A program made the translations under genes and the position numbers. From Escherichia coli (GTDB lineage: Bacteria > Pseudomonadota > Gammaproteobacteria > Enterobacterales > Enterobacteriaceae): a stretch of 64,000 nucleotides of DNA. The notes under the pieces were generated by a model. It saw only the letters and a list, made by a program, of their open reading frames with translations, was not told where the DNA came from and searched no databases. Each line of letters opens with the position of its first letter. The first letter of the stretch is position 1. The stretch is taken from assembly GCF_016026235.1 (NCBI RefSeq), contig NZ_CP065613.1. One strand, 5' to 3'. Positions 1,117 to 39,712 of the stretch are shown here, in pieces.

Positions 1117-2313
1117 ATGGCTCAAGTTATTAATGAAATGGATGTTCCGTCCCATTCGTTTGTTTTTCATGGTACAGGTGAGAGATATTTTCTTATTTGT
1201 GTGGTGAATGTGTTGTTAACGATTATAACGCTAGGTATCTATTTACCATGGGCATTAATGAAATGTAAGCGTTATCTCTATGCTAATATGGAAGTTAACG
1301 GACAACGATTTTCTTATGGAATTACCGGTGGGAATGTTTTTTTTAGTTGTCTTGTTTTTGTTTTTTTCTATTTCGCAATCTTAATGACAGTGTCAGCAGA
1401 TATGCCACTTGTTGGCTGTGTTTTGACTTTGTTACTGTTGGTTTTGCTTATATTTATGGCAGCAAAAGGACTGCGTTATCAGGCCTTGATGACCAGTCTC
1501 AACGGCGTAAGATTTAGTTTTAATTGCTCTATGAAAGGGTTCTGGTGGGTAACCTTTTTCTTGCCGATTTTAATGGCCATTGGGATGGGGACTGTTTTCT
1601 TTATCTCGACAAAGATGCTACATGCCAATAGTTCAAGTAGTGTTATTATATCTGTGGTTCTGATGGCAATAGTTGGTATTGTTTCCATTGGTATTTTTAA
1701 TGGTACTTTATATAGTCTGGTAATGGGTTTTCTCTGGAGCAATACCAGTTTCGGTATACATCGTTTCAAGGTGAAATTAGATACTACGTATTGTATAAAA
1801 TATGCCATTCTCGCATTTTTAGCTTTATTACCTTTTCTCGCTGTTGCTGGTTATATTATCTTCGATTAAATATTAAATGCGTATGATAGTTCTGTGTATG
1901 CAAATGATGATATTGAGAATTTACAGCAATTTATGGAAATGCAACGTAAAATGATAATCGCGCAGTTAATCTATTATTTTGGGATTGCTGTTAGCACCAG
2001 TTATTTAACGGTGTCGTTGCGAAATCATTTTATGAGCAACCTGTCACTGAATGATGGGCGTATTCGTTTTCGCTCAACTTTAACATACCACGGTATGCTT
2101 TATCGCATGTGTGCGTTGGTGGTGATATCCGGGATTACGGGCGGTCTGGCTTATCCACTGCTGAAAATATGGATGATTGACTGGCAGGCAAAAAATACGT
2201 ATTTGCTGGGCGATTTGGATGACCTTCCTTTAATCAATAAAGAAGAACAACCAGATAAAGGCTTCTTAGCCAGTATTTCACGGGGAATTATGCCTTCTTT
2301 ACCATTTCTGTAA
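1117..2313 (+). pseudogene. yjgN: inner membrane protein YjgN (DUF898) interrupted by in-frame TAA at 1867..1869
   Basis: ORFs 1090..1869 and 1894..2313 are in the same frame separated only by one TAA codon; combined length from MAQVINEMD matches the ~398-aa YjgN. Confidence 0.6.
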
Positions 2314-2339
2314 GAGATAAAAAAGGCCGGAGCATGCTC

Positions 2340-3634
2340 CTGAGGGATCCCCAGAAAATTTAGTAAACCATTATCATATTGGTATACCGTTGCTGTAGAA
2401 CTTTCAGCCCTGCGTCAAGTGACAGTGTGTTTAGTATGAGTGGAGAATGTCGAATCACATTCTCCGCCAGTTTTAATAACGAGATGACTCGCCTGTGCTT
2501 CACTGTATTTGCCTGATATTTATGATGTATCCCTTTGTTTTCCAGGCTGAAACCGCTTAACCACATAATGATACTGGCTAATGTTGCGATCAGACTCAAT
2601 ACCGTGACCCGCCCAGATGAATGACTGGCACCAAACCGTAGTCCAAATCCCCAGCGAGGATTTTTTTCATCCCTGAAATTTTGCTCAATTTGCATTCTAC
2701 GGCTGTATAATTTCATTACCTGTTTTGGCGAGAACTCAGTACTGTTTGTGAAAATAAACCATGGTGATTTCCCGGCAGTACGAGCTTTAGCCGTCACCGA
2801 TGGTCTGGTTGCTCTTTCCTTCGAGCGTTTAAATCTACGACCTTTAGGCTTACTTTTATAAAGATAAAAATGCCCTTCATGTTGTGCATTTTTATCTCGA
2901 CCCAGCAGGCCTTCACCTAAATAAATTGCTGTCGTTGATGCTTTTGTGCCTGAGTCCGACACCTTTTCCCAGCCATTACCAACATTGTAATAATGATTGC
3001 CCAGTACCCGGCAAATATAGGTCCAGCCACGGGAGCGGAGCTGTTGGAACCATCGCCCCTGAAAACCGGCATCTGTAATAACAATGACATCAGTCCCGGG
3101 GGAAAAGCACTCAGCAAGCGATTCCAGAAAACGCTCATGTACATCTGCATTCGCTGTCTGTGATGATGGAACGACACAACTCATCAACGGTAAAGAACGC
3201 CCGTCACATGCCAGGCTTGCCCGCAAAAGCTGAAAACGAGAGGCATGATAAGCACTCCAGTCAATGAGTATCACAACACGAGACATTCCCCGCGTAATCT
3301 TTTGGGTAATTCGCTGAAAAATGGTGGAAACCTCATTTTGCAAATGTCGATTCCCCAACAGTCGATCCACCCGCTTTATTTTGTTTTTAACTGATGCCGT
3401 ACCGGTTAAATGACGCCCGATACTGGTAAGTGTGAGGGAAGCGCCATTTATTACAGCATTAGTTGCGTCAATCAGTGATTTTTGACGGTAAAGATGCAAA
3501 GGGGCCAGTATGTTGTTAAGGAAATTTTGGCATAATGAACGTGCAGGCATAGTGGTGATCTCCTTGAAATTGTTAGCACAATCAATTAGATCACATCTCA
3601 CTATGCCTGTCTTGTTTTCTGGGGATTCCTCAGG
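2340..3634 (-). mobile_element. IS4-family insertion sequence (IS10-like), copy 1, ~1295 bp, flanked by 9-bp direct repeat AGCATGCTC
   Basis: Imperfect terminal inverted repeats CTGAGGGATCCCCAG / CTGGGGATTCCTCAG; duplicated 9-mer at 2331..2339 and 3635..3643; internal transposase ORF. Confidence 0.85.
2360..3550 (-). CDS. IS4-family (IS10-like) DDE transposase
   Basis: Motifs KRVDRLLGNRHL, DAGF, YSRRMQIEQNFRDEK, HKYQANTVKHR resemble the IS10 transposase; start placed at MPARSLCQ by alignment to the IS10 transposase N-terminus. Confidence 0.8.
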   Translation of the reverse strand: MPARSLCQNFLNNILAPLHLYRQKSLIDATNAVINGASLTLTSIGRHLTGTASVKNKIKRVDRLLGNRHLQNEVSTIFQRITQKITRGMSRVVILIDWSAYHASRFQLLRASLACDGRSLPLMSCVVPSSQTANADVHERFLESLAECFSPGTDVIVITDAGFQGRWFQQLRSRGWTYICRVLGNHYYNVGNGWEKVSDSGTKASTTAIYLGEGLLGRDKNAQHEGHFYLYKSKPKGRRFKRSKERATRPSVTAKARTAGKSPWFIFTNSTEFSPKQVMKLYSRRMQIEQNFRDEKNPRWGFGLRFGASHSSGRVTVLSLIATLASIIMWLSGFSLENKGIHHKYQANTVKHRRVISLLKLAENVIRHSPLILNTLSLDAGLKVLQQRYTNMIMVY

Positions 3635-3672
3635 AGCATGCTCCGGCCTTCGTTTTCATCACTGTGTTTTGA

Positions 3673-6528
3673 TTACAGCGCGGCGATAACAGCCTGCTGT
3701 TCAATCAGCTTCGCTTTCGCTTCTGCATAGCCTTCCAGCTTCTCACGCTCTTTCGCGATGACCGCTTCCGGTGCGCGGGCGACAAAGCCTTCATTCGCCA
3801 GCTTGTTCTCGATACGGCTGATTTCACCTTCAATCTTCGCCACTTCTTTCGCCAGACGCGCCAGCTCATCTTCTTTGTTGATGAGGCCAGCCATCGGGAT
3901 CAGCAGCTCTGCACCGTCGATGATCTTCGTAACGGAAACCGGACCTTTGTCATCGGCAGGCAGCACGGTGATGCTTTCCAGACGCGCCAGGGTTTGCAGG
4001 AAGCCACGGTTTTCATTTACGCGACGTTCTGCATCCGCGCTGCAACCACGCAGCAGCAGCTCCAGCGGTTTGCCCGGCGCGATGTTCATCTCTGCACGGA
4101 TGTTACGTACCGCAACGATCGCCTGTTTCAGCCACTCGGTGTCGGCCAATGCGGCTTCATCAACCTGAGATGCATCATACTGCGGGAACGGCTGCAGCAT
4201 GATGGTGTCGGCAGTGATACCGCAAAGTACTTTCACACGCTGCCAGATGGTTTCGGTGATGAACGGAATGATCGGATGCGCGAGGCGCAGCAGACCTTCC
4301 AGCACGGTCACCAGCGTATGGCGAGTACCGCGCAGTTCGGCTTCGGTGCCACCGTTCATTACCGGCTTAGTCAGCTCCAGATACCAGTCACAGAACTGGT
4401 TCCAGGTGAACTCATACAGAATGCCTGCGGCGATATCGAAGCGGAAGCTGTCCAGCGCTTCGCGGTACGCTTTGATGGTCTGGTTGAACTCCGCCAGAAT
4501 CCAGCGATCCGCCAGCGACAGCGTCATCTCGCCGCCGTTGAAGCCGCAATCCTGATCTTCGGTGTTCATCAGCACAAAGCGGCTGGCGTTCCACAGCTTG
4601 TTACAGAAGTTACGGTAACCTTCCAGGCGTTTCATATCCCAGTTGATATCGCGACCGGTAGAAGCCAGCGCCGCCAGGGTGAAGCGCAGCGCGTCAGTAC
4701 CGTGCGGTTCAATACCGTTCGGGAACTGCTTCTCGGTGCGCTTACGGATTTTGTCCGCCAGCTGTGGCTGCATCATATTGCCGGTGCGTTTTTCCAGCAG
4801 TTCTGGCAGCGAAATACCGTCAACCATATCCAGTGGATCAATAACGTTACCCTTGGATTTGGACATCTTCTGGCCTTCGTCGTCACGAATCAGGCCGGTC
4901 ATGTAAACAGTGTGGAACGGCACCTGCGGTTTGCCATTTTCATCTTTGATGAAGTGCATGGTCATCATGATCATGCGGGCAATCCAGAAGAAGATGATGT
5001 CGAAACCAGATACCATCACGCTGGTTGGGTGGAACTGACGCAGGGCGTCGGTATTTTCCGGCCAGCCAAGGGTAGAGAAGGTCCACAGCGCAGAAGAGAA
5101 CCAGGTGTCGAGAACGTCTTCGTCCTGACGCAGGACAACATCAGCACCGAGGTTATTTTCTTTACGCACTTCGTCTTCGTTGCGGCCAACATAAACGTTA
5201 CCCGCTTCGTCATACCATGCCGGGATACGGTGACCCCACCACAACTGACGAGAGATACACCAGTCCTGAATATCGCGCATCCAGGAGAAGTACATGTTTT
5301 CGTACTGCTTCGGTACGAACTGAATGTCGCCGTTCTCAACCGCTTCAACTGCCGGTTTCGCCAGGACATCGGCACGCACGTACCACTGGTCGGTCAGCAT
5401 CGGTTCGATGACCACGCCACCACGGTCGCCATAAGGAACGGTCAGGTCATGTGGTTTAATTTCTTCCAGCAGGCCGAGTGCGTCAACCGCAGCAACGACC
5501 GCTTTACGTGCAGCAAAACGCTCCAGTTTCTGGAATTCTGCGGGGATCTCGCTGGAATAAACGTCAGATTCGTTACCTTTGGTATCGAACACCTGGGCAC
5601 TTTCACGGATATCGCCGTCAAAGGTCAGGATGTTGATCATCGGCAGGGCGTGACGTTTACCGACTTCATAGTCGTTAAAGTCGTGCGCCGGGGTGATCTT
5701 CACGCAGCCGGTGCCTTTTTCCATGTCGGCGTGTTCGTCGCCAACGATCGGAATACGACGGTTAACCAGCGGCAGAATGACATATTTGCCAATCAGATCT
5801 TTGTAACGCGGATCTTCCGGGTTAACGGCCACGCCGGTATCGCCCAGCAGGGTTTCCGGACGAGTAGTCGCAACCACCAGATAATCTTTACCATCTGCGG
5901 TTTTCGCGCCGTCAGCCAGCGGATAGCGGATGTGCCACATCGAACCTTTCGATTCGCGGTTTTCCACTTCCAGGTCAGAGATAGCGGTGCGCAGTTTCGG
6001 ATCCCAGTTTACCAGGCGTTTGCCACGGTAAATCAGGTCTTCTTTATACAGACGAACGAAAACTTCTTTCACCGCATTGGACAGGCCTTCGTCCATAGTG
6101 AAGCGTTCACGCTCCCAGTCTACGGAGTTGCCGAGACGGCGCATCTGACGGGTAATGGTGCCGCCAGATTCCGCTTTCCATTCCCAGATTTTGTCGATGA
6201 AAGCTTCGCGGCCGTAGTCGTGACGGGTTTTACCTTCTTCTGCGGCAATCTTGCGCTCAACGACCATCTGGGTAGCGATCCCGGCGTGGTCAGTACCGAC
6301 CTGCCACAGGGTGTTTTTGCCCTGCATGCGCTGATAGCGGATCATGGTATCCATGATGGTTTGCTGGAAGGCGTGACCCATATGCAAACTGCCGGTGACG
6401 TTCGGCGGCGGGATCATGATGCAGAAACTTTCCTGGCTTTCATCGCCATTAGGCTTAAAGTAGCCCTGCTTTTCCCAGTGCTCGTAAAGCGGCTGTTCGA
6501 TATCTTGTGGGTTATATGTCTTTTCCAT
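3673..6528 (-). CDS. valS: valine--tRNA ligase
   Basis: 951-aa ORF with class I aaRS HMGH and KMSKS motifs and C-terminal coiled coil. Confidence 0.97.
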
Positions 6529-20668: not shown

Positions 20669-23409
20669 ATGATTACAAAAGATATAGTTGTTAGTGCATA
20701 TAATTGTCTTAAGTCATATGCTTACTACGAAAACTTAAATTTTTTCCTAAAGGAAGAAATCGCTCAATTTGAAGATTCTCTCTATGACGAAAAAATAGAA
20801 AAAGTGGTTGATTTTTTTGAAAATAATAATGACATTAACTTTAATGAGTGGCTAAATAAAATTGATGTTGAATTATTACCAAAAAAAATTGATAGCCATT
20901 TGGATATTGAGCAAACGAGCGGAGCTCTTTTTTTAAGTAATAATAAGACATCAGATGAATACAAAGTAGGTGCTGTAAATTATTTGATCGTTGCTCCTAT
21001 TGAAATATATTTAATAGAAACACTCTGGTCTATCTTTGTTGGTTCAATGCTAGATGACAAGTTTTCTGATTCGGTTTATGGAAATAGAATATCAAAAGTA
21101 ATAAAAAATATTCTAAGAATAGTTTCGATGCGCCAAAAAACTCCTCAAAAAATATCTTTGAAAGATACATTGATAATTATAATAAATGGCGAGATGGTGG
21201 TATCGATAAAGCGATAGAAGTTATAGAAAAAGAGCGAAATGATGTTGCAATTCTTTCTCTGGATCTTAAGGGTTTTTATTATAATATAGATATAGATTTT
21301 GATGCCATTGATAGAATTATTGACGAAGAACAATTAGAAGAAATTAAAGCTCTTTCTATGTTGTTGAATAGTAAATTGAGGTTGATGCATCAAAAATACA
21401 GAGAGAAAATATCTCCATATATTGGTGTGACACATTCAACTCCTTCATCAAAAGGCATTCCAATTGGATTTACTTCTTCTGCCATATTATCTAATTGGTA
21501 TTTAATGGGTTTTGATAAAGATATTAAATCAAAAATTAACCCATCGTACTACGGTCGCTATGTGGATGATATTCTTTTAGTTTTTTCATCCCCGGACATT
21601 AAAAAAGAAGATAAAGGTGAAGAAGTAATAAAATTCATAGAGCGAACCCTTAATGGATTCATTAAACAGGCAGCGAATGATGAGAAAGGCTTTACGTTGA
21701 CCGAGAGTTATCATGAATTACCAATTCAAAAGGATAAATTGATTTTTCATTATTTCAATAAAGATCATAGTTTGGCTGGTTTACAAGTCTTCAAACAAGA
21801 AATTGAGAACAGAAGCAGTGCATTTCGTTTTTTACCGGAAGAACATATATCTAGCGATCTCGATAAATTTGCTTATGATATATTACTTGATGGTTCGGCA
21901 AATAAATTTAGAAGTATTGTAGGTTTGGCAGAGAATGAAACTGAATTATCAAAATATATATCATCACATATCTTAGCTCATAGGCTTTGCAATCTTCCAT
22001 CGAATGAGAATACCTTAAAGCAAATAACGCTGTTTTTTAAAGGTGAAAATTCTCTAAGGTTCAGTCGGTTATGGGAGAAAGTTCTATCGTATACATTAAT
22101 TACAAGAAAATATGGATTTTCAATCGCCTTTTACAAACAAATTAAAGAATCAATTAATAAAATTAAGTGGAAGGAAGGTGATAGTGTTATATCTCCAAAA
22201 CTTAAAAATGGAATGCAGAAATACATTGATATTTCTCTTTGTTTGAATTTGGCTTTGTTAGATTTAAATGTCATTTTAGGTGATAAAGAGCCACAAAATA
22301 GAGCTTTGGAAGGTTTGAAATCTTTAATTAAACAGTCCGATGGAATGTCTGTTCTAATTGAAAGATTTAGAAGCAGTAATTTGATTCGTCATAATCTAGT
22401 GTCTTGGCCTTTAGCTAACTATACTAAATATAAAGGAGATCTTACTGAGGAGAATTTATACAGTAAGATGCATGGTATTCCACTTGATAATGATAAATTA
22501 AATAAAACCCCTAGATATATTCATGCTGATGAAAAGCAGCTTTTCGATTTGATTGATGCTCTTCATACAAGAAAACTACATAAGTTTACGCATGAAAATA
22601 AGCATCACTTAAAAAATTGCTCTGTTACTAAGATAAAAGATAATAAAGCTCTTGAAATAAAGGTAGGAATTGATGATAGAAGTGGTAATGACACAATAAA
22701 AGTTGCGTTGGCAAATATGAGAGTTGAACGTCGTAATATTGAAAGTGCTTGCAGAAAAGATCAGTCTCCAAATTTAAGTTATGAACGACAAAGAAACCTT
22801 TATCGTATTCTCAACTCGGCAACTGAAGAAAATGTGCAGATATTACTACTCCCTGAGTTATCAATTCCTGTGTCGTGGTTACCTTTTATGGCAGCACATT
22901 CAAGGAGAAAACAAATATCTTTGATTTTCGGATTAGAGCATTGGGTTATTAACGAACGCGCATATAATATTTTGGTTGAAATGCTGCCTTATACTTCAAA
23001 CTTTAAACACAAATCCAGTATGTTAGTTTTTCGAGTGAAAAATCATTACGCACCTAGTGAGATTACGATGCTGAATTCTTTAAGGTTAAAAATATCCTCT
23101 CCTAAACCTAGTAAACAACGGTATCATTTGATTAAGTGGAAAAACGTATCATTTTCTACATACAACTGTTTTGAACTGGCTAATATCGAGCATAGAGCAT
23201 TATTTCGTTCGCAGTTGGATATTTTATTTGCTTGCGTATGGAATCAAGATATAAATTATTATCAACATATCACTGAGTCAGCGACACGGGATTTACATTG
23301 TTATGTGGCTCAATCGAATACTTCGCATTATGGCGGTTCTTGTGTTCTACAACCGACCAGTAGCACTATTTCAAATAAGATATATGTAAAAGGTGGGGAA
23401 AACCACTGA
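20669..23409 (+). pseudogene. reverse transcriptase-nitrilase fusion (DRT1/UG1-like), with a -1 frame change near 21130-21155 and 3' end severed by IS insertion
   Basis: Frame switch between ORF 20669..21217 and the frame carrying RT motif A (AILSLDLKGFYYNID) and motif C (YGRYVDDILLVF); C-terminal nitrilase-superfamily triad motifs LLLPELSIP, FRVKNHYAPSE, STYNCFELAN; stop codon TGA supplied by the IS end. Confidence 0.7.
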
Positions 23410-24700
23410 GGGATCCCCAGAAAATTTAGTAAACCATTATCATATTGGTATACCGTTGCTGTAGAACTTTCAGCCCTGCGTCAAGTGACAGTGTGTTTAG
23501 TATGAGTGGAGAATGTCGAATCACATTCTCCGCCAGTTTTAATAACGAGATGACTCGCCTGTGCTTCACTGTATTTGCCTGATATTTATGATGTATCCCT
23601 TTGTTTTCCAGGCTGAAACCGCTTAACCACATAATGATACTGGCTAATGTTGCGATCAGACTCAATACCGTGACCCGCCCGGATGAATGACTGGCACCAA
23701 ACCGTAGTCCAAATCCCCAGCGAGGATTTTTTTCATCCCTGAAATTTTGCTCAATTTGCATTCTACGGCTGTATAATTTCATTACCTGTTTTGGCGAGAA
23801 CTCAGTACTGTTTGTGAAAATAAACCATGGTGATTTCCCGGCAGTACGAGCTTTAGCCGTCACCGATGGTCTGGTTGCTCTTTCCTTCGAGCGTTTAAAT
23901 CTACGACCTTTAGGCTTACTTTTATAAAGATAAAAATGCCCTTCATGTTGTGCATTTTTATCTCGACCCAGCAGGCCTTCACCTAAATAAATTGCTGTCG
24001 TTGATGCTTTTGTGCCTGAGTCCGACACCTTTTCCCAGCCATTACCAACATTGTAATAATGATTGCCCAGTACCCGGCAAATATAGGTCCAGCCACGGGA
24101 GCGGAGCTGTTGGAACCATCGCCCCTGAAAACCGGCATCTGTAATAACAATGACATCAGTCCCGGGGGAAAAGCACTCAGCAAGCGATTCCAGAAAACGC
24201 TCATGTACATCTGCATTCGCTGTCTGTGATGATGGAACGACACAACTCATCAACGGTAAAGAACGCCCGTCACATGCCAGGCTTGCCCGCAAAAGCTGAA
24301 AACGAGAGGCATGATAAGCACTCCAGTCAATGAGTATCACAACACGAGACATTCCCCGCGTAATCTTTTGGGTAATTCGCTGAAAAATGGTGGAAACCTC
24401 ATTTTGCAAATGTCGATTCCCCAACAGTCGATCCACCCGCTTTATTTTGTTTTTAACTGATGCCGTACCGGTTAAATGACGCCCGATACTGGTAAGTGTG
24501 AGGGAAGCGCCATTTATTACAGCATTAGTTGCGTCAATCAGTGATTTTTGACGGTAAAGATGCAAAGGGGCCAGTATGTTGTTAAGGAAATTTTGGCATA
24601 ATGAACGTGCAGGCATAGTGGTGATCTCCTTGAAATTGTTAGCACAATCAATTAGATCACATCTCACTATGCCTGTCTTGTTTTCTGGGGATTCCTCAGG
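23406..24700 (-). mobile_element. IS4-family insertion sequence (IS10-like), copy 2, flanked by 9-bp direct repeat GGAAAACCA
   Basis: Same element as copy 1 at a constant offset; duplicated 9-mer at 23397..23405 and 24701..24709. Confidence 0.85.
23426..24616 (-). CDS. IS4-family (IS10-like) DDE transposase
   Basis: Identical protein to copy 1; the ORF-track N-terminal extension crosses the IS boundary and is not part of the gene. Confidence 0.8.
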   Translation of the reverse strand: MPARSLCQNFLNNILAPLHLYRQKSLIDATNAVINGASLTLTSIGRHLTGTASVKNKIKRVDRLLGNRHLQNEVSTIFQRITQKITRGMSRVVILIDWSAYHASRFQLLRASLACDGRSLPLMSCVVPSSQTANADVHERFLESLAECFSPGTDVIVITDAGFQGRWFQQLRSRGWTYICRVLGNHYYNVGNGWEKVSDSGTKASTTAIYLGEGLLGRDKNAQHEGHFYLYKSKPKGRRFKRSKERATRPSVTAKARTAGKSPWFIFTNSTEFSPKQVMKLYSRRMQIEQNFRDEKNPRWGFGLRFGASHSSGRVTVLSLIATLASIIMWLSGFSLENKGIHHKYQANTVKHRRVISLLKLAENVIRHSPLILNTLSLDAGLKVLQQRYTNMIMVY

Positions 24701-38417: not shown

Positions 38418-39712
38418 CTGAGGGATCCCCAGAAAATTTAGTAAACCATTATCATATTGGTATACCGTTGCTGTAGAACTTTCAGCCCTGCGTCAAGTGA
38501 CAGTGTGTTTAGTATGAGTGGAGAATGTCGAATCACATTCTCCGCCAGTTTTAATAACGAGATGACTCGCCTGTGCTTCACTGTATTTGCCTGATATTTA
38601 TGATGTATCCCTTTGTTTTCCAGGCTGAAACCGCTTAACCACATAATGATACTGGCTAATGTTGCGATCAGACTCAATACCGTGACCCGCCCGGATGAAT
38701 GACTGGCACCAAACCGTAGTCCAAATCCCCAGCGAGGATTTTTTTCATCCCTGAAATTTTGCTCAATTTGCATTCTACGGCTGTATAATTTCATTACCTG
38801 TTTTGGCGAGAACTCAGTACTGTTTGTGAAAATAAACCATGGTGATTTCCCGGCAGTACGAGCTTTAGCCGTCACCGATGGTCTGGTTGCTCTTTCCTTC
38901 GAGCGTTTAAATCTACGACCTTTAGGCTTACTTTTATAAAGATAAAAATGCCCTTCATGTTGTGCATTTTTATCTCGACCCAGCAGGCCTTCACCTAAAT
39001 AAATTGCTGTCGTTGATGCTTTTGTGCCTGAGTCCGACACCTTTTCCCAGCCATTACCAACATTGTAATAATGATTGCCCAGTACCCGGCAAATATAGGT
39101 CCAGCCACGGGAGCGGAGCTGTTGGAACCATCGCCCCTGAAAACCGGCATCTGTAATAACAATGACATCAGTCCCGGGGGAAAAGCACTCAGCAAGCGAT
39201 TCCAGAAAACGCTCATGTACATCTGCATTCGCTGTCTGTGATGATGGAACGACACAACTCATCAACGGTAAAGAACGCCCGTCACATGCCAGGCTTGCCC
39301 GCAAAAGCTGAAAACGAGAGGCATGATAAGCACTCCAGTCAATGAGTATCACAACACGAGACATTCCCCGCGTAATCTTTTGGGTAATTCGCTGAAAAAT
39401 GGTGGAAACCTCATTTTGCAAATGTCGATTCCCCAACAGTCGATCCACCCGCTTTATTTTGTTTTTAACTGATGCCGTACCGGTTAAATGACGCCCGATA
39501 CTGGTAAGTGTGAGGGAAGCGCCATTTATTACAGCATTAGTTGCGTCAATCAGTGATTTTTGACGGTAAAGATGCAAAGGGGCCAGTATATTGTTAAGGA
39601 AATTTTGGCATAATGAACGTGCAGGCATAGTGGTGATCTCCTTGAAATTGTTAGCACAATCAATTAGATCACATCTCACTATGCCTGTCTTGTTTTCTGG
39701 GGATTCCTCAGG
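38418..39712 (-). mobile_element. IS4-family insertion sequence (IS10-like), copy 3, flanked by 9-bp direct repeat AGTGATCCC
   Basis: Same termini as copies 1 and 2; duplicated 9-mer at 38409..38417 and 39713..39721; target lies in GGGGAGTGATCCCC. Confidence 0.85.
38438..39628 (-). CDS. IS4-family (IS10-like) DDE transposase
   Basis: Identical protein to copies 1 and 2. Confidence 0.8.
   Translation of the reverse strand: MPARSLCQNFLNNILAPLHLYRQKSLIDATNAVINGASLTLTSIGRHLTGTASVKNKIKRVDRLLGNRHLQNEVSTIFQRITQKITRGMSRVVILIDWSAYHASRFQLLRASLACDGRSLPLMSCVVPSSQTANADVHERFLESLAECFSPGTDVIVITDAGFQGRWFQQLRSRGWTYICRVLGNHYYNVGNGWEKVSDSGTKASTTAIYLGEGLLGRDKNAQHEGHFYLYKSKPKGRRFKRSKERATRPSVTAKARTAGKSPWFIFTNSTEFSPKQVMKLYSRRMQIEQNFRDEKNPRWGFGLRFGASHSSGRVTVLSLIATLASIIMWLSGFSLENKGIHHKYQANTVKHRRVISLLKLAENVIRHSPLILNTLSLDAGLKVLQQRYTNMIMVY

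Follow-up and report, generated by a model that had tools for sequence, protein, structure and literature searches.

Insertion sequences of the IS4 family are defined by a Y(2)R(3)E(6)K signature that lies downstream of the third catalytic residue of the transposase. In the case of IS10, the insertion hotspot reads NGCTNAGCN, and Davis, Simons and Kleckner are said to have reported in 1985 that the element is protected from external promoters by fold-back pairing. RNA-OUT, the promoter pIN and a Dam site overlapping the -10 element of pIN are documented for IS10 (PMC5006887). Two other elements serve for comparison. The target of IS186, 5'-GGGG(N6/N7)CCCC-3', is highly specific, and only its 6-7 bp core is described as duplicated (PMC5009759). 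ISPpu9 inserts in REPs and is subject to control by an sRNA and by 5'-UTR structure (PMC8450116).

The locus considered here lies in a window (the whole stretch of Escherichia coli DNA that was analysed) of 64,000 nucleotides, in which sequence reading places an intact copy of ISEc60 between the convergent genes yjgN and valS (Table 1). The insertion is real but ordinary, and the element is a known one. Our reading, to which we attach a probability of roughly 0.85, is that valS and yjgN had a Rho-independent hairpin in common and that an active ISEc60 moved into its apex. The element is a member of the IS4 family and IS10 group, specifically ISEc60: it is 99.9% identical in DNA and 100% identical in protein to copies named "IS4-like element ISEc60 family transposase" by PGAP, and its transposase scores 360.3 bits (cutoff 152) against the NCBIfam IS4-family transposase model NF033591. 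The identical protein matches Pfam DDE_Tnp_1, and alignments place the family signature at YSRRMQIEQNFRDEK. The two ends agree at 18 of 19 positions; the end motif is matched six times in the window and never in 100 shuffles. A 10-bp duplication accompanies 11 of the 15 ISEc60 copies examined. As the earlier note on this DNA had stated, the transposase is oriented as valS is, both being on the minus strand. (A side observation: the lineage was found via an exact-protein match, GCA_031665325.1, L012.)

Table 1. Features of the valS/yjgN locus and other ISEc60 copies in the window
Feature	Position	Strand	Remarks
yjgN, pseudogene here	1117-2313	+	By alignment to annotated ECONIH4 yjgN; in the ORF list, frame broken at 1869
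A6 run	2319-2324		U-tract template for valS-sense RNA
Left palindrome half GGCCGGAGCATGCTC	2325-2339	.	Left duplication copy is 2330-2339
ISEc60, IS4 family, IS10 group, intact, 1,294 bp	2340-3633	-	99.9% identical to annotated copies
Inner terminal inverted repeat CTGAGGGATCCCCAGAAAA	2340-2358	+	Transposase 3' side; GATC (Dam) at 2346-2349
Transposase, 396 aa, DDE type	2360-3550	-	Same coordinates as PGAP CDS WP_001111632.1
Hairpin, then CAGTTTTAAT	2440-2467	+	About 100 nt inside the IS; low-confidence candidate stop for transcripts from yjgN
TGGCATAAT, extended -10-like motif, outward	3528-3536	+	May drive an RNA-OUT-like antisense transcript starting at ~3543
66-nt stem-loop	3544-3609	-	Downstream arm holds SD AAGGAG (3565-3560) and AUG (3550-3548)
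Second GATC	3557-3560		
TGATCTAAT, putative -10 of transposase promoter	3585-3593	-	GATC embedded at 3589-3592; predicted activity
Outer terminal inverted repeat CTGAGGAATCCCCAGAAAA	3615-3633	-	Transposase 5' side; without GATC, reads GAATCC
Right palindrome half GAGCATGCTCCGGCC	3634-3648	.	Right duplication copy is 3634-3643; then TTCGTTTTC
TTCGTTTTC	3' of right half 3634-3648		U-rich tract for yjgN-sense RNA
valS (valine--tRNA ligase), intact, 951 aa	3673-6528	-	TIGR00422, 1,305 bits
ISEc60 copy 2	23406-24699	-	TSD TGGTTTTCCC (transposase orientation); weaker, non-hairpin site
ISEc60 copy 3	38418-39711	-	Apex of hairpin GGCGGGGAGTGATCCCCGCC (window + strand), downstream of hokC; TSD GGGATCACTC (transposase orientation)

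The palindrome halves flank ISEc60, and the 10-bp direct repeat within them, GAGCATGCTC, is the target duplication. When the element is taken out, the 20-bp palindrome GGCCGGAGCATGCTCCGGCC is whole again, with T-runs on both sides, just as had been proposed from the two flanking halves. Strain ECONIH4 holds the empty site, AAAAAAGGCCGGAGCATGCTCCGGCCTTCGTTTTC, which is exactly the window minus ISEc60 and one copy of the repeat. Among 5,426 complete E. coli genomes, 5,412 contain matches to a 121-bp probe spanning the empty junction, and 4,621 of these cover at least 80% of its length; the IS-containing junction, at the same coverage of at least 80%, was found at 0 places among these 5,426. The comparison with strains that lack the insertion, suggested in the earlier note, thus comes out in its favor, and the location of the IS within the shared terminator, at the apex of a GC-rich palindrome, holds. 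Could the palindrome halves instead be extended inverted repeats belonging to ISEc60 itself, rather than a split host terminator? An inverted-repeat finder does extend the arms to 43 nt, flanks included (I1), and BLAST matches to other ISEc60 copies do run 10-25 bp beyond the IS ends; but the palindrome stands uninterrupted in ECONIH4, most of the complete genomes match the empty junction, and 14 other copies of the element, identical in length, have different flanks. The empty site and the copies with unrelated flanks refute element-owned halves, which we hold to be practically impossible: the repeat appears to extend past the IS ends because target sequences resemble one another, not because the element includes them.

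Before the insertion, this site is predicted to have been a bidirectional Rho-independent terminator. A terminator scan of the empty site yields a stem of 11 pairs on the minus strand and one of 10 pairs on the plus strand, each with a T-rich tail; they fold at -24.8 kcal/mol (z -5.8) and -20.9 kcal/mol (z -4.8), respectively. Of the two tails, UUCGUUUUC on the yjgN side is the weaker and U6 on the valS side the stronger; the former hairpin is 24 nt downstream of the valS stop codon. With ISEc60 in place the two junctions fold at -6.0 kcal/mol (z +0.9) and -7.4 kcal/mol (z +0.7), values equalled or bettered by 170 and 156 of 200 shuffles, and the scan returns no terminator-like match at 2325-2345 or 3625-3650. 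Terminator features are, by these predictions, kept at neither junction. Since the junction folds are at shuffle level, neither half looks in silico like a terminator in its own right; a working terminator in each half is what the earlier note had named as counting against it. At each junction a mini-hairpin of 4 bp, GGAG/CUCC, would be all that is left (with one pair restored by the terminal C of the IS), and transcripts arriving there would no longer meet a U-tract. With so little of the hairpin left and the U-tract gone, transcripts of valS and yjgN have probably lost this site of intrinsic termination, and those of valS would run on into ISEc60 from the 5' end of the transposase. Computation thus sides with the split terminator, the lost yjgN terminator and the possible valS read-through that had been suggested; the effects on transcription at valS/yjgN are predicted ones.

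It is unlikely, if worth serious consideration, that half-sites or IS-borne hairpins still terminate efficiently and that the insertion is transcriptionally neutral. Some candidates can be offered: 1) The plus-strand hairpin at 2440-2467 might stop yjgN-sense RNA. It folds at -17.4 kcal/mol (z -4.6), is followed by a U-rich tail, matches in the scan and is kept in the 85% relative. It was not found in ISSfl1 or in a Salmonella plasmid relative, and was consequently dropped as a conserved IS-borne terminator; it is a low-confidence candidate only. 2) RNA leaving the IS would encounter GGAGCAUGCUCC followed by GGCC-U6 at the left junction, where the original U6 is retained four nucleotides past the mini-hairpin. 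The scan calls neither junction, however, and neither folds better than its shuffles. 3) Rho might act on untranslated transposase RNA, untranslated RNA being its classical substrate. As to the region in general, it holds three terminator-like matches, against 1.6 +/- 1.3 expected by chance, and for valS-sense RNA nothing terminator-like appears in the first 400 nt of ISEc60.

If the terminator is indeed lost to both genes, the consequences for the locus itself are probably of little importance. A CAA to TAA change at 1867-1869 makes a stop of Gln251 in yjgN (398 codons in other E. coli); the gene being a pseudogene already, loss of its terminator should have a negligible effect. An essential valS is left without its predicted 3' hairpin and a dead yjgN without a terminator, and the strain evidently tolerates both. 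One can think of the locus as a natural test case for what the loss of a bidirectional terminator does to convergent transcription.

Why did ISEc60 land at the tip of this particular hairpin? Eighteen independent ISEc60 sites with 10-bp duplications (a convenience sample of available assemblies, so that the consensus may be biased by fixation) yield the consensus G/GGGAWWTCCC/C, which is GGGG-N4-CCCC: G occupies positions 0, 1, 2 and 3 in 15, 17, 14 and 15 of the 18 sites, and C occupies positions 8, 10 and 11 in 15, 17 and 15 of them. The uidA/uidR site has been used in both orientations in unrelated strains (L003, L022), and so has the ampH/iprA site (L018, L030). In the 60,088 bp that make up the IS-free window there are two matches to the loose motif GGRG-N4-CYCC, and both are occupied. 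ISEc60 has target specificity of the IS186 type; a search of the literature found no published target rule for ISEc60, which appears there in lists only. ISEc60 selects the short symmetric sequence GGGG-N4-CCCC, with cuts staggered by 10 bp, and the apex of the valS/yjgN terminator, GGAG-CATG-CTCC, fits that rule. The element is accordingly at this hairpin tip not by chance but because the tip matches its preferred G-run/C-run target. A 10-bp stagger centred on the loop accounts for a duplication made up of the 4-nt loop and 3 bp of each stem arm, which is what this insertion duplicated, leaving the arms 1.3 kb apart. The proposal that the IS lies "in the loop" is therefore right as to the centre of the insertion but not as to its extent, the duplication taking in the ends of both arms as well as the loop. 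(A technical note: a 9-bp duplication as in IS10, with an extra C assigned to the outer end, is disfavored although position 10 is C; the symmetry of the consensus and the duplicated T at position 1 of copy 2 favor 10 bp.)

The other way of explaining the choice of site is that the transposase or transpososome recognizes structure: an extruded hairpin, a cruciform or a single-stranded hairpin at a fork. In that case terminator stems, being GC-rich, would produce the G-run/C-run consensus incidentally. Twelve of the 18 sites are indeed very stable hairpins, their 40-nt fold energies falling in the lowest 2.5% of 2,000 control windows, their stems reaching well past the 12-bp motif and the duplication centred on the loop in 11 of the 12. 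Positions -1 and 12 are complementary too (C in 12/18, G in 11/18), and several empty window sites that have the 10-bp core have weaker stems. Yet the strong hairpin is missing at six of the 18 sites: a G...C core occurs without a significant hairpin at L003, L005, L010, L024 traL, L029 mscL and window copy 2. Positions 0-3 and 8-11 are, moreover, specifically G and C, which goes beyond mere complementarity, and IS186, with its similar motif, is described as reading its GC-rich flanks as sequence (PMC5009759). We therefore think recognition of structure, and with it the demotion of the consensus to a by-product, distinctly unlikely.

Selection of GGGG-N4-CCCC as sequence makes the target highly predictable, and as a consequence ISEc60 copies accumulate at the tips of terminator and toxin-mRNA hairpins. 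The rule, which is close to that of IS186 and is the only mildly new point here, makes it possible to predict where insertions will fall in E. coli lineages undergoing IS expansion (EIEC/Shigella-like). A much more ambitious proposal, and a long shot, is that ISEc60 and its relatives are dedicated seekers of hairpin apices, reading both the structure and the sequence of GC-rich tips (intrinsic terminators; the 3' hairpins of hok and ibs type I toxin mRNAs; CRISPR repeats). They would systematically dismantle host terminators in an IS-expanding E. coli lineage, while their own end-proximal hairpins (the RNA-OUT-like stem with its U-tract; 2440-2467) insulate the element and partly replace the terminators that are lost.

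What would valS read-through mean for the transposase? The 66-nt stem-loop at 3544-3609 (inverted repeats I11 and I12; followed on the plus strand by TCTTGTTTTCT) folds at -37.9 kcal/mol (z -6.5), and it forms in the fold of the full valS read-through RNA. It is predicted to lie over the SD and AUG, with its upstream arm between the IS end and a putative transposase promoter, which TGATCTAAT would place inside the hairpin. An RNA beginning at that predicted promoter shows no structure (-5.4 kcal/mol, z +0.5). Read-through RNA, on the other hand, would carry the upstream arm, burying the transposase SD and AUG; with both sequestered, valS read-through should not switch on the transposase, in the manner of the fold-back protection of IS10. 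By analogy with pOUT of IS10, TGGCATAAT may be an antisense promoter; on its strand, the plus strand, the hairpin has a U-rich tail. Antisense transcription of this hairpin, giving an RNA-OUT-like RNA, would probably add to silencing. A consensus promoter scan called neither of the proposed promoters, TGATCTAAT and TGGCATAAT.

The stem-loop is conserved in five elements, down to 50% protein identity and including ISSfl1 and the Salmonella relative; covariation among these five sequences consists of compensatory changes at two pairs. TC24, an 82% relative, was set aside as a source of covariation: this copy has decayed into a pseudogene, its changes are offset and do not compensate one another, and so it adds little. 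To judge from the sequence, Dam sites are placed in the putative transposase -10 and in the inner end only. The Rfam RNA-OUT model (RF00240), searched at E<=1, finds nothing in ISEc60 or its 82-85% relatives, nor in ISSfl1 and the Salmonella relative, while the IS10A control scores 85.9 bits; membership of ISEc60 is accordingly not claimed. Other Rfam matches are at chance level (ST7-OT3_4, E 0.78; STnc290, E 0.065, below the gathering score). The fold-back and Dam design of IS10 thus appears to be kept in elements that the RNA-OUT model misses.

ISEc60 and IS10 have several features in common. The two transposases are 36% identical over 372 aa (IS10A; E 5e-76), the ends of both elements begin CTGA-GAATCCCC, and each has a single ORF, whose start is some 85-110 bp in from the outer end. 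Both have a stem-loop over the start codon, on both strands, and the Rfam RNA-OUT of IS10A lies over the AUG just as the ISEc60 hairpin does. Both have GATC in the putative -10 (TGATCTAAT in ISEc60, the equivalent TGATCAAAT in IS10A) and in the inner end, with none in the outer end. They differ in the length of the duplication (10 bp against 9 bp for IS10), in the target, GGGG-N4-CCCC being unlike the IS10 hotspot, in the position of the hairpin, which is nearer the end in ISEc60 (IS bp 25-90, against 45-113 in IS10A), and in the RNA-OUT model, which fits IS10A but not ISEc60.

As to target choice, ISEc60 is like IS186 in using a specific palindromic G-run/C-run target in either orientation, and IS186A of K-12 sits, with a 1-bp offset, in the same hairpin downstream of hokC as ISEc60 copy 3. 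The transposases are barely related: the likeness of ISEc60 to InsL of IS186 is confined to 22 aa of the YREK region (E 0.008), and no homology was found beyond that match. ISEc60 has a spacer of N4, and three of the four Gs and as many of the Cs fall within its 10-bp duplication. The closest named relative is ISSfl1 of Shigella flexneri (52% protein identity), with the Salmonella plasmid relative at 50%; both share the outer-end 19-mer of ISEc60 and the 5' hairpin, with GATC in both arms. At the one site at hand ISSfl1 is also within a small GC hairpin, GCCCTGAAGGGGC, with a 9-bp duplication, CCTGAAGGG, whose C-run/G-run polarity is opposite to that of ISEc60. Elements that, like ISPpu9, home to palindromes or terminators share with ISEc60 the avoidance of gene disruption through insertion in intergenic hairpins. 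They belong to other families (IS110, tyrosine and serine recombinases, retroelements) and use other mechanisms, whereas ISEc60 is of the DDE cut-and-paste type, with target duplications.

The yjgN-valS spacer of this strain is interrupted by a complete copy of ISEc60, an IS10-group member of the IS4 family: after the yjgN stop codon come GAGATAAAAAAGGCCGGAGCATGCTC, the IS itself (from CTGAGGGATCCCCAGAAAA to TTTTCTGGGGATTCCTCAG), GAGCATGCTCCGGCCTTCGTTTTC and the valS stop codon. The insertion is real and was read correctly in the earlier note: the palindrome halves that it quoted flank the IS exactly, and the transposase is, as it stated, co-oriented with valS and opposed to the convergent yjgN. 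The event is also ordinary: a known IS inserted where its own target preference directs it. Its end motif matches six times in the window and never in 100 shuffles, which accounts for three full ISEc60 copies.

Features of the three ISEc60 insertions and their surroundings (window positions)
Feature	Position	Strand	Remarks
yjgN premature stop	1867-1869	plus	CAA (as in ECONIH4) to TAA, codon 251 of 398
yjgN stop codon	2311-2313	plus	convergent with valS
Palindrome halves	2325-2339 and 3634-3648		
Direct repeat, 10 bp	2330-2339 and 3634-3643		GAGCATGCTC, both flanks of copy 1
ISEc60 copy 1	2340-3633		1,294 bp; bounds set by end motif CTGAGGRATCCCCAGAAAA
Terminal 15 bp of copy 1	2340-2354 and 3619-3633		CTGAGGGATCCCCAG
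GATC, inner end	2346-2349		
Hairpin inside IS	2440-2467	plus	-17.4 kcal/mol, then CAGUUUUAAU; 100 nt inside IS
Transposase gene	3550 to 2360	minus	396 aa
66-nt hairpin	3609-3544		IS bp 25-90; -37.9 kcal/mol, z -6.5; AAGGAG and AUG in downstream arm
valS stop codon	3673-3675	minus	
valS	3673-6528	minus	TIGR00422, 1,305 bits
683-aa ORF	21358-23409		3' end abutted by copy 2
ISEc60 copy 2	23406-24699		duplication to 24709; target TGGTTTTCCC, weaker, non-hairpin
ISEc60 copy 3	38418-39711		hairpin GGCGGGGATCACTCCCCGCC (K-12 orientation) just downstream of hokC

The empty site is represented by E. coli ECONIH4, whose spacer, AAAAAAGGCCGGAGCATGCTCCGGCCTTCGTTTTC, is exactly the window sequence minus the IS and one repeat copy. 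Among complete E. coli genomes (5,426), a 121-bp probe over this junction has matches in 5,412, and in 4,621 these span 80% or more of the probe; the IS-containing junction was found in none of the 5,426 at 80% coverage or more. Bidirectional terminators are pervasive between convergent E. coli genes. The proposal that the IS split one shared by valS and yjgN is supported by prediction: the empty site scores as terminator-like on both strands (stems of 11 and 10 pairs with T-rich tails), with fold energies of -24.8 kcal/mol (valS sense, z -5.8) and -20.9 kcal/mol (yjgN sense, z -4.8).

Copy 1 shares 99.9% identity with copies named "IS4-like element ISEc60 family transposase" by PGAP; its transposase scores 360 bits against the IS4-family model NF033591 (cutoff 152), carries the YSRRMQIEQNFRDEK motif, and is 52% identical to that of ISSfl1 and 36% to that of IS10A (E 5e-76). 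The element is rare: copies at least 80% complete occur in 14 of the 5,426 genomes, including FDAARGOS_943, with 38 ISEc60 places, and CFSAN029787, with its 294-kb plasmid. An exact-protein look-up showed that assembly GCA_031665325.1 carries the valS insertion too (locus L012; 1 mismatch in 6,050 bp), and a second locus of that assembly (L011) is identical to the window across 6,191 bp; the window therefore belongs to that lineage. The coordinates of those records imply that the valS and hokC sites lie 1,304 bp closer together there than in the window, exactly one ISEc60 plus its 10-bp duplication, so that copy 2 appears to be absent there and to be a recent, polymorphic insertion. At two other loci (L007 and L009) full-length copies lack matching duplications: the left and right flanks of each derive from separate target sites, a pattern to be expected where homologous recombination between IS copies has caused inversions or deletions in the lineage.

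What should splitting the terminator do to the flanking genes? The scan calls no terminator-like site at either IS junction, and the incoming RNAs fold poorly: -6.0 kcal/mol in the valS sense (...GGCCGGAGCAUGCUCCUGAGGAAUCCCC; 170 of 200 shuffles at least as stable) and -7.4 in the yjgN sense (156 of 200). Each junction keeps just a 4-bp GGAG/CUCC mini-hairpin with no U-tract after it; in silico, neither half-site looks like a terminator that still works. It is from these predictions that we infer the consequences for valS and yjgN transcription. Judged by its in-frame stop and truncation, yjgN is already a pseudogene in this strain; that stop codon and three ISEc60 copies in 64 kb suggest that IS expansion and gene decay are under way in this genome. 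The plus-strand hairpin inside the IS could stop yjgN-sense transcripts, a suggestion given low weight because the hairpin was not found in ISSfl1 or a Salmonella relative and because three such terminator-like hits are within chance expectation.

Read-through from valS would enter ISEc60 at the transposase 5' end, where the 66-nt hairpin would enclose the Shine-Dalgarno sequence and AUG. When the whole read-through RNA is folded from the valS stop onward, this hairpin is present (-45.2 kcal/mol); RNA from about IS bp 55, downstream of a putative -10 (TGATCTAAT), shows no such structure (-5.4 kcal/mol, z +0.5). Five elements keep the hairpin, the most divergent at 50% protein identity, with compensatory changes at two pairs (U-A/C-G/A-U and G-C/A-U). 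On the plus strand TGGCATAAT comes before it and UCUUGUUUUCU after it, the form expected of a putative RNA-OUT analogue. The inner-end Dam site has a role in IS10, and ISEc60, like IS10, has GATC in its inner but not its outer end. The layout also parallels that of IS10A: there the Rfam RNA-OUT match (85.9 bits) spans the AUG, and pIN has a Dam-controlled -10, TGATCAAAT (PMC5006887). The Rfam model does not match ISEc60: the element is likened to IS10 in how its control may work, and membership in RF00240 is not claimed. Given the hairpin in read-through RNA, its conservation and the IS10A-like layout, valS read-through is expected to be translationally silent. This would be the "protection from external promoters" that Davis, Simons and Kleckner reportedly described in 1985 for Tn10.

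The target preference is drawn from 18 independent sites (the three window copies, 10 look-up places and 11 complete-genome loci, with redundant ones removed). The duplication is 10 bp wherever there is one. In transposase orientation, G occupies positions 0, 1, 2 and 3 in 15, 17, 14 and 15 sites, and C positions 8, 10 and 11 in 15, 17 and 15; position 9 is C or T, and positions 4-7 are A/T-rich. The consensus is G|GGGAWWTCCC|C, that is, GGGG-N4-CCCC, which the valS/yjgN terminator apex, GGAG-CATG-CTCC, fits. GGRG-N4-CYCC occurs exactly twice in the window minus its three IS copies (60,088 bp), with ISEc60 at both. Unrelated strains carry opposite-orientation insertions at the same site, at uidA/uidR (L003, L022) and at ampH/iprA (L018, L030).

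Many targets are hairpins: 12 of 18 rebuilt sites have 40-nt fold energies in the lowest 2.5% of 2,000 control 40-mers, among them the ftsH/folP and deoD terminators, a convergent-gene terminator (L006), and 3' hairpins of hok and ibs. In 11 of the 12 the loop lies at the centre of the duplication; at the twelfth, a CRISPR repeat (L008), the hairpin lies just beside it. That copy (L008 2418-3711; duplication GCGAGTTCCC) sits at the edge of a repeat, GAGTTCCCCGCGCCAGCGGGGATAAACC, which we take to be type I-E. At the other six the motif occurs with no significant hairpin, and sequence alone therefore appears sufficient; DNA structure may contribute as well. On the CFSAN029787 chromosome (L019) two copies with a common duplication, GGGTTTCCCC, adjoin two Ibs-family type I toxin genes, which with the hok sites shows that ISEc60 repeatedly targets the 3' hairpins of type I toxin mRNAs.

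ISEc60 can also adjoin itself. Tandem dimers with a spacer of exactly 10 bp (GGGATTTACC) are found at a chromosomal hok site (L004 2418-5015) and on the large CFSAN029787 plasmid (L025). At L025 the spacer sequence recurs as the outer flank; at L004 the dimer is bounded by the duplication GGGATTTTCC, as would be the case had both copies moved together. The G and C beside each duplication copy are supplied anew by the IS termini (...CAG, CTG...), which re-creates a target next to a resident copy. The terminal 15 bp include GGGATCCCC, similar to the preferred GGGAWWTCCC but shorter in the centre.

No published target rule for ISEc60 turned up in the literature that could be searched. The nearest precedent is IS186, which targets 5'-GGGG(N6/N7)CCCC-3' in either orientation (PMC5009759). 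In K-12, IS186A (L032, 15387-16731) occupies the same hokC-downstream hairpin as copy 3, with a 1-bp offset, despite essentially unrelated transposases (E 0.008 against InsL). Modestly new, then, are: 1) the GGGG-N4-CCCC rule and 10-bp duplication for an IS10-group element; 2) the retention of IS10's fold-back and Dam design in elements that the Rfam model misses; and 3) the convergence of the ISEc60 rule with IS186 on the same hairpins.
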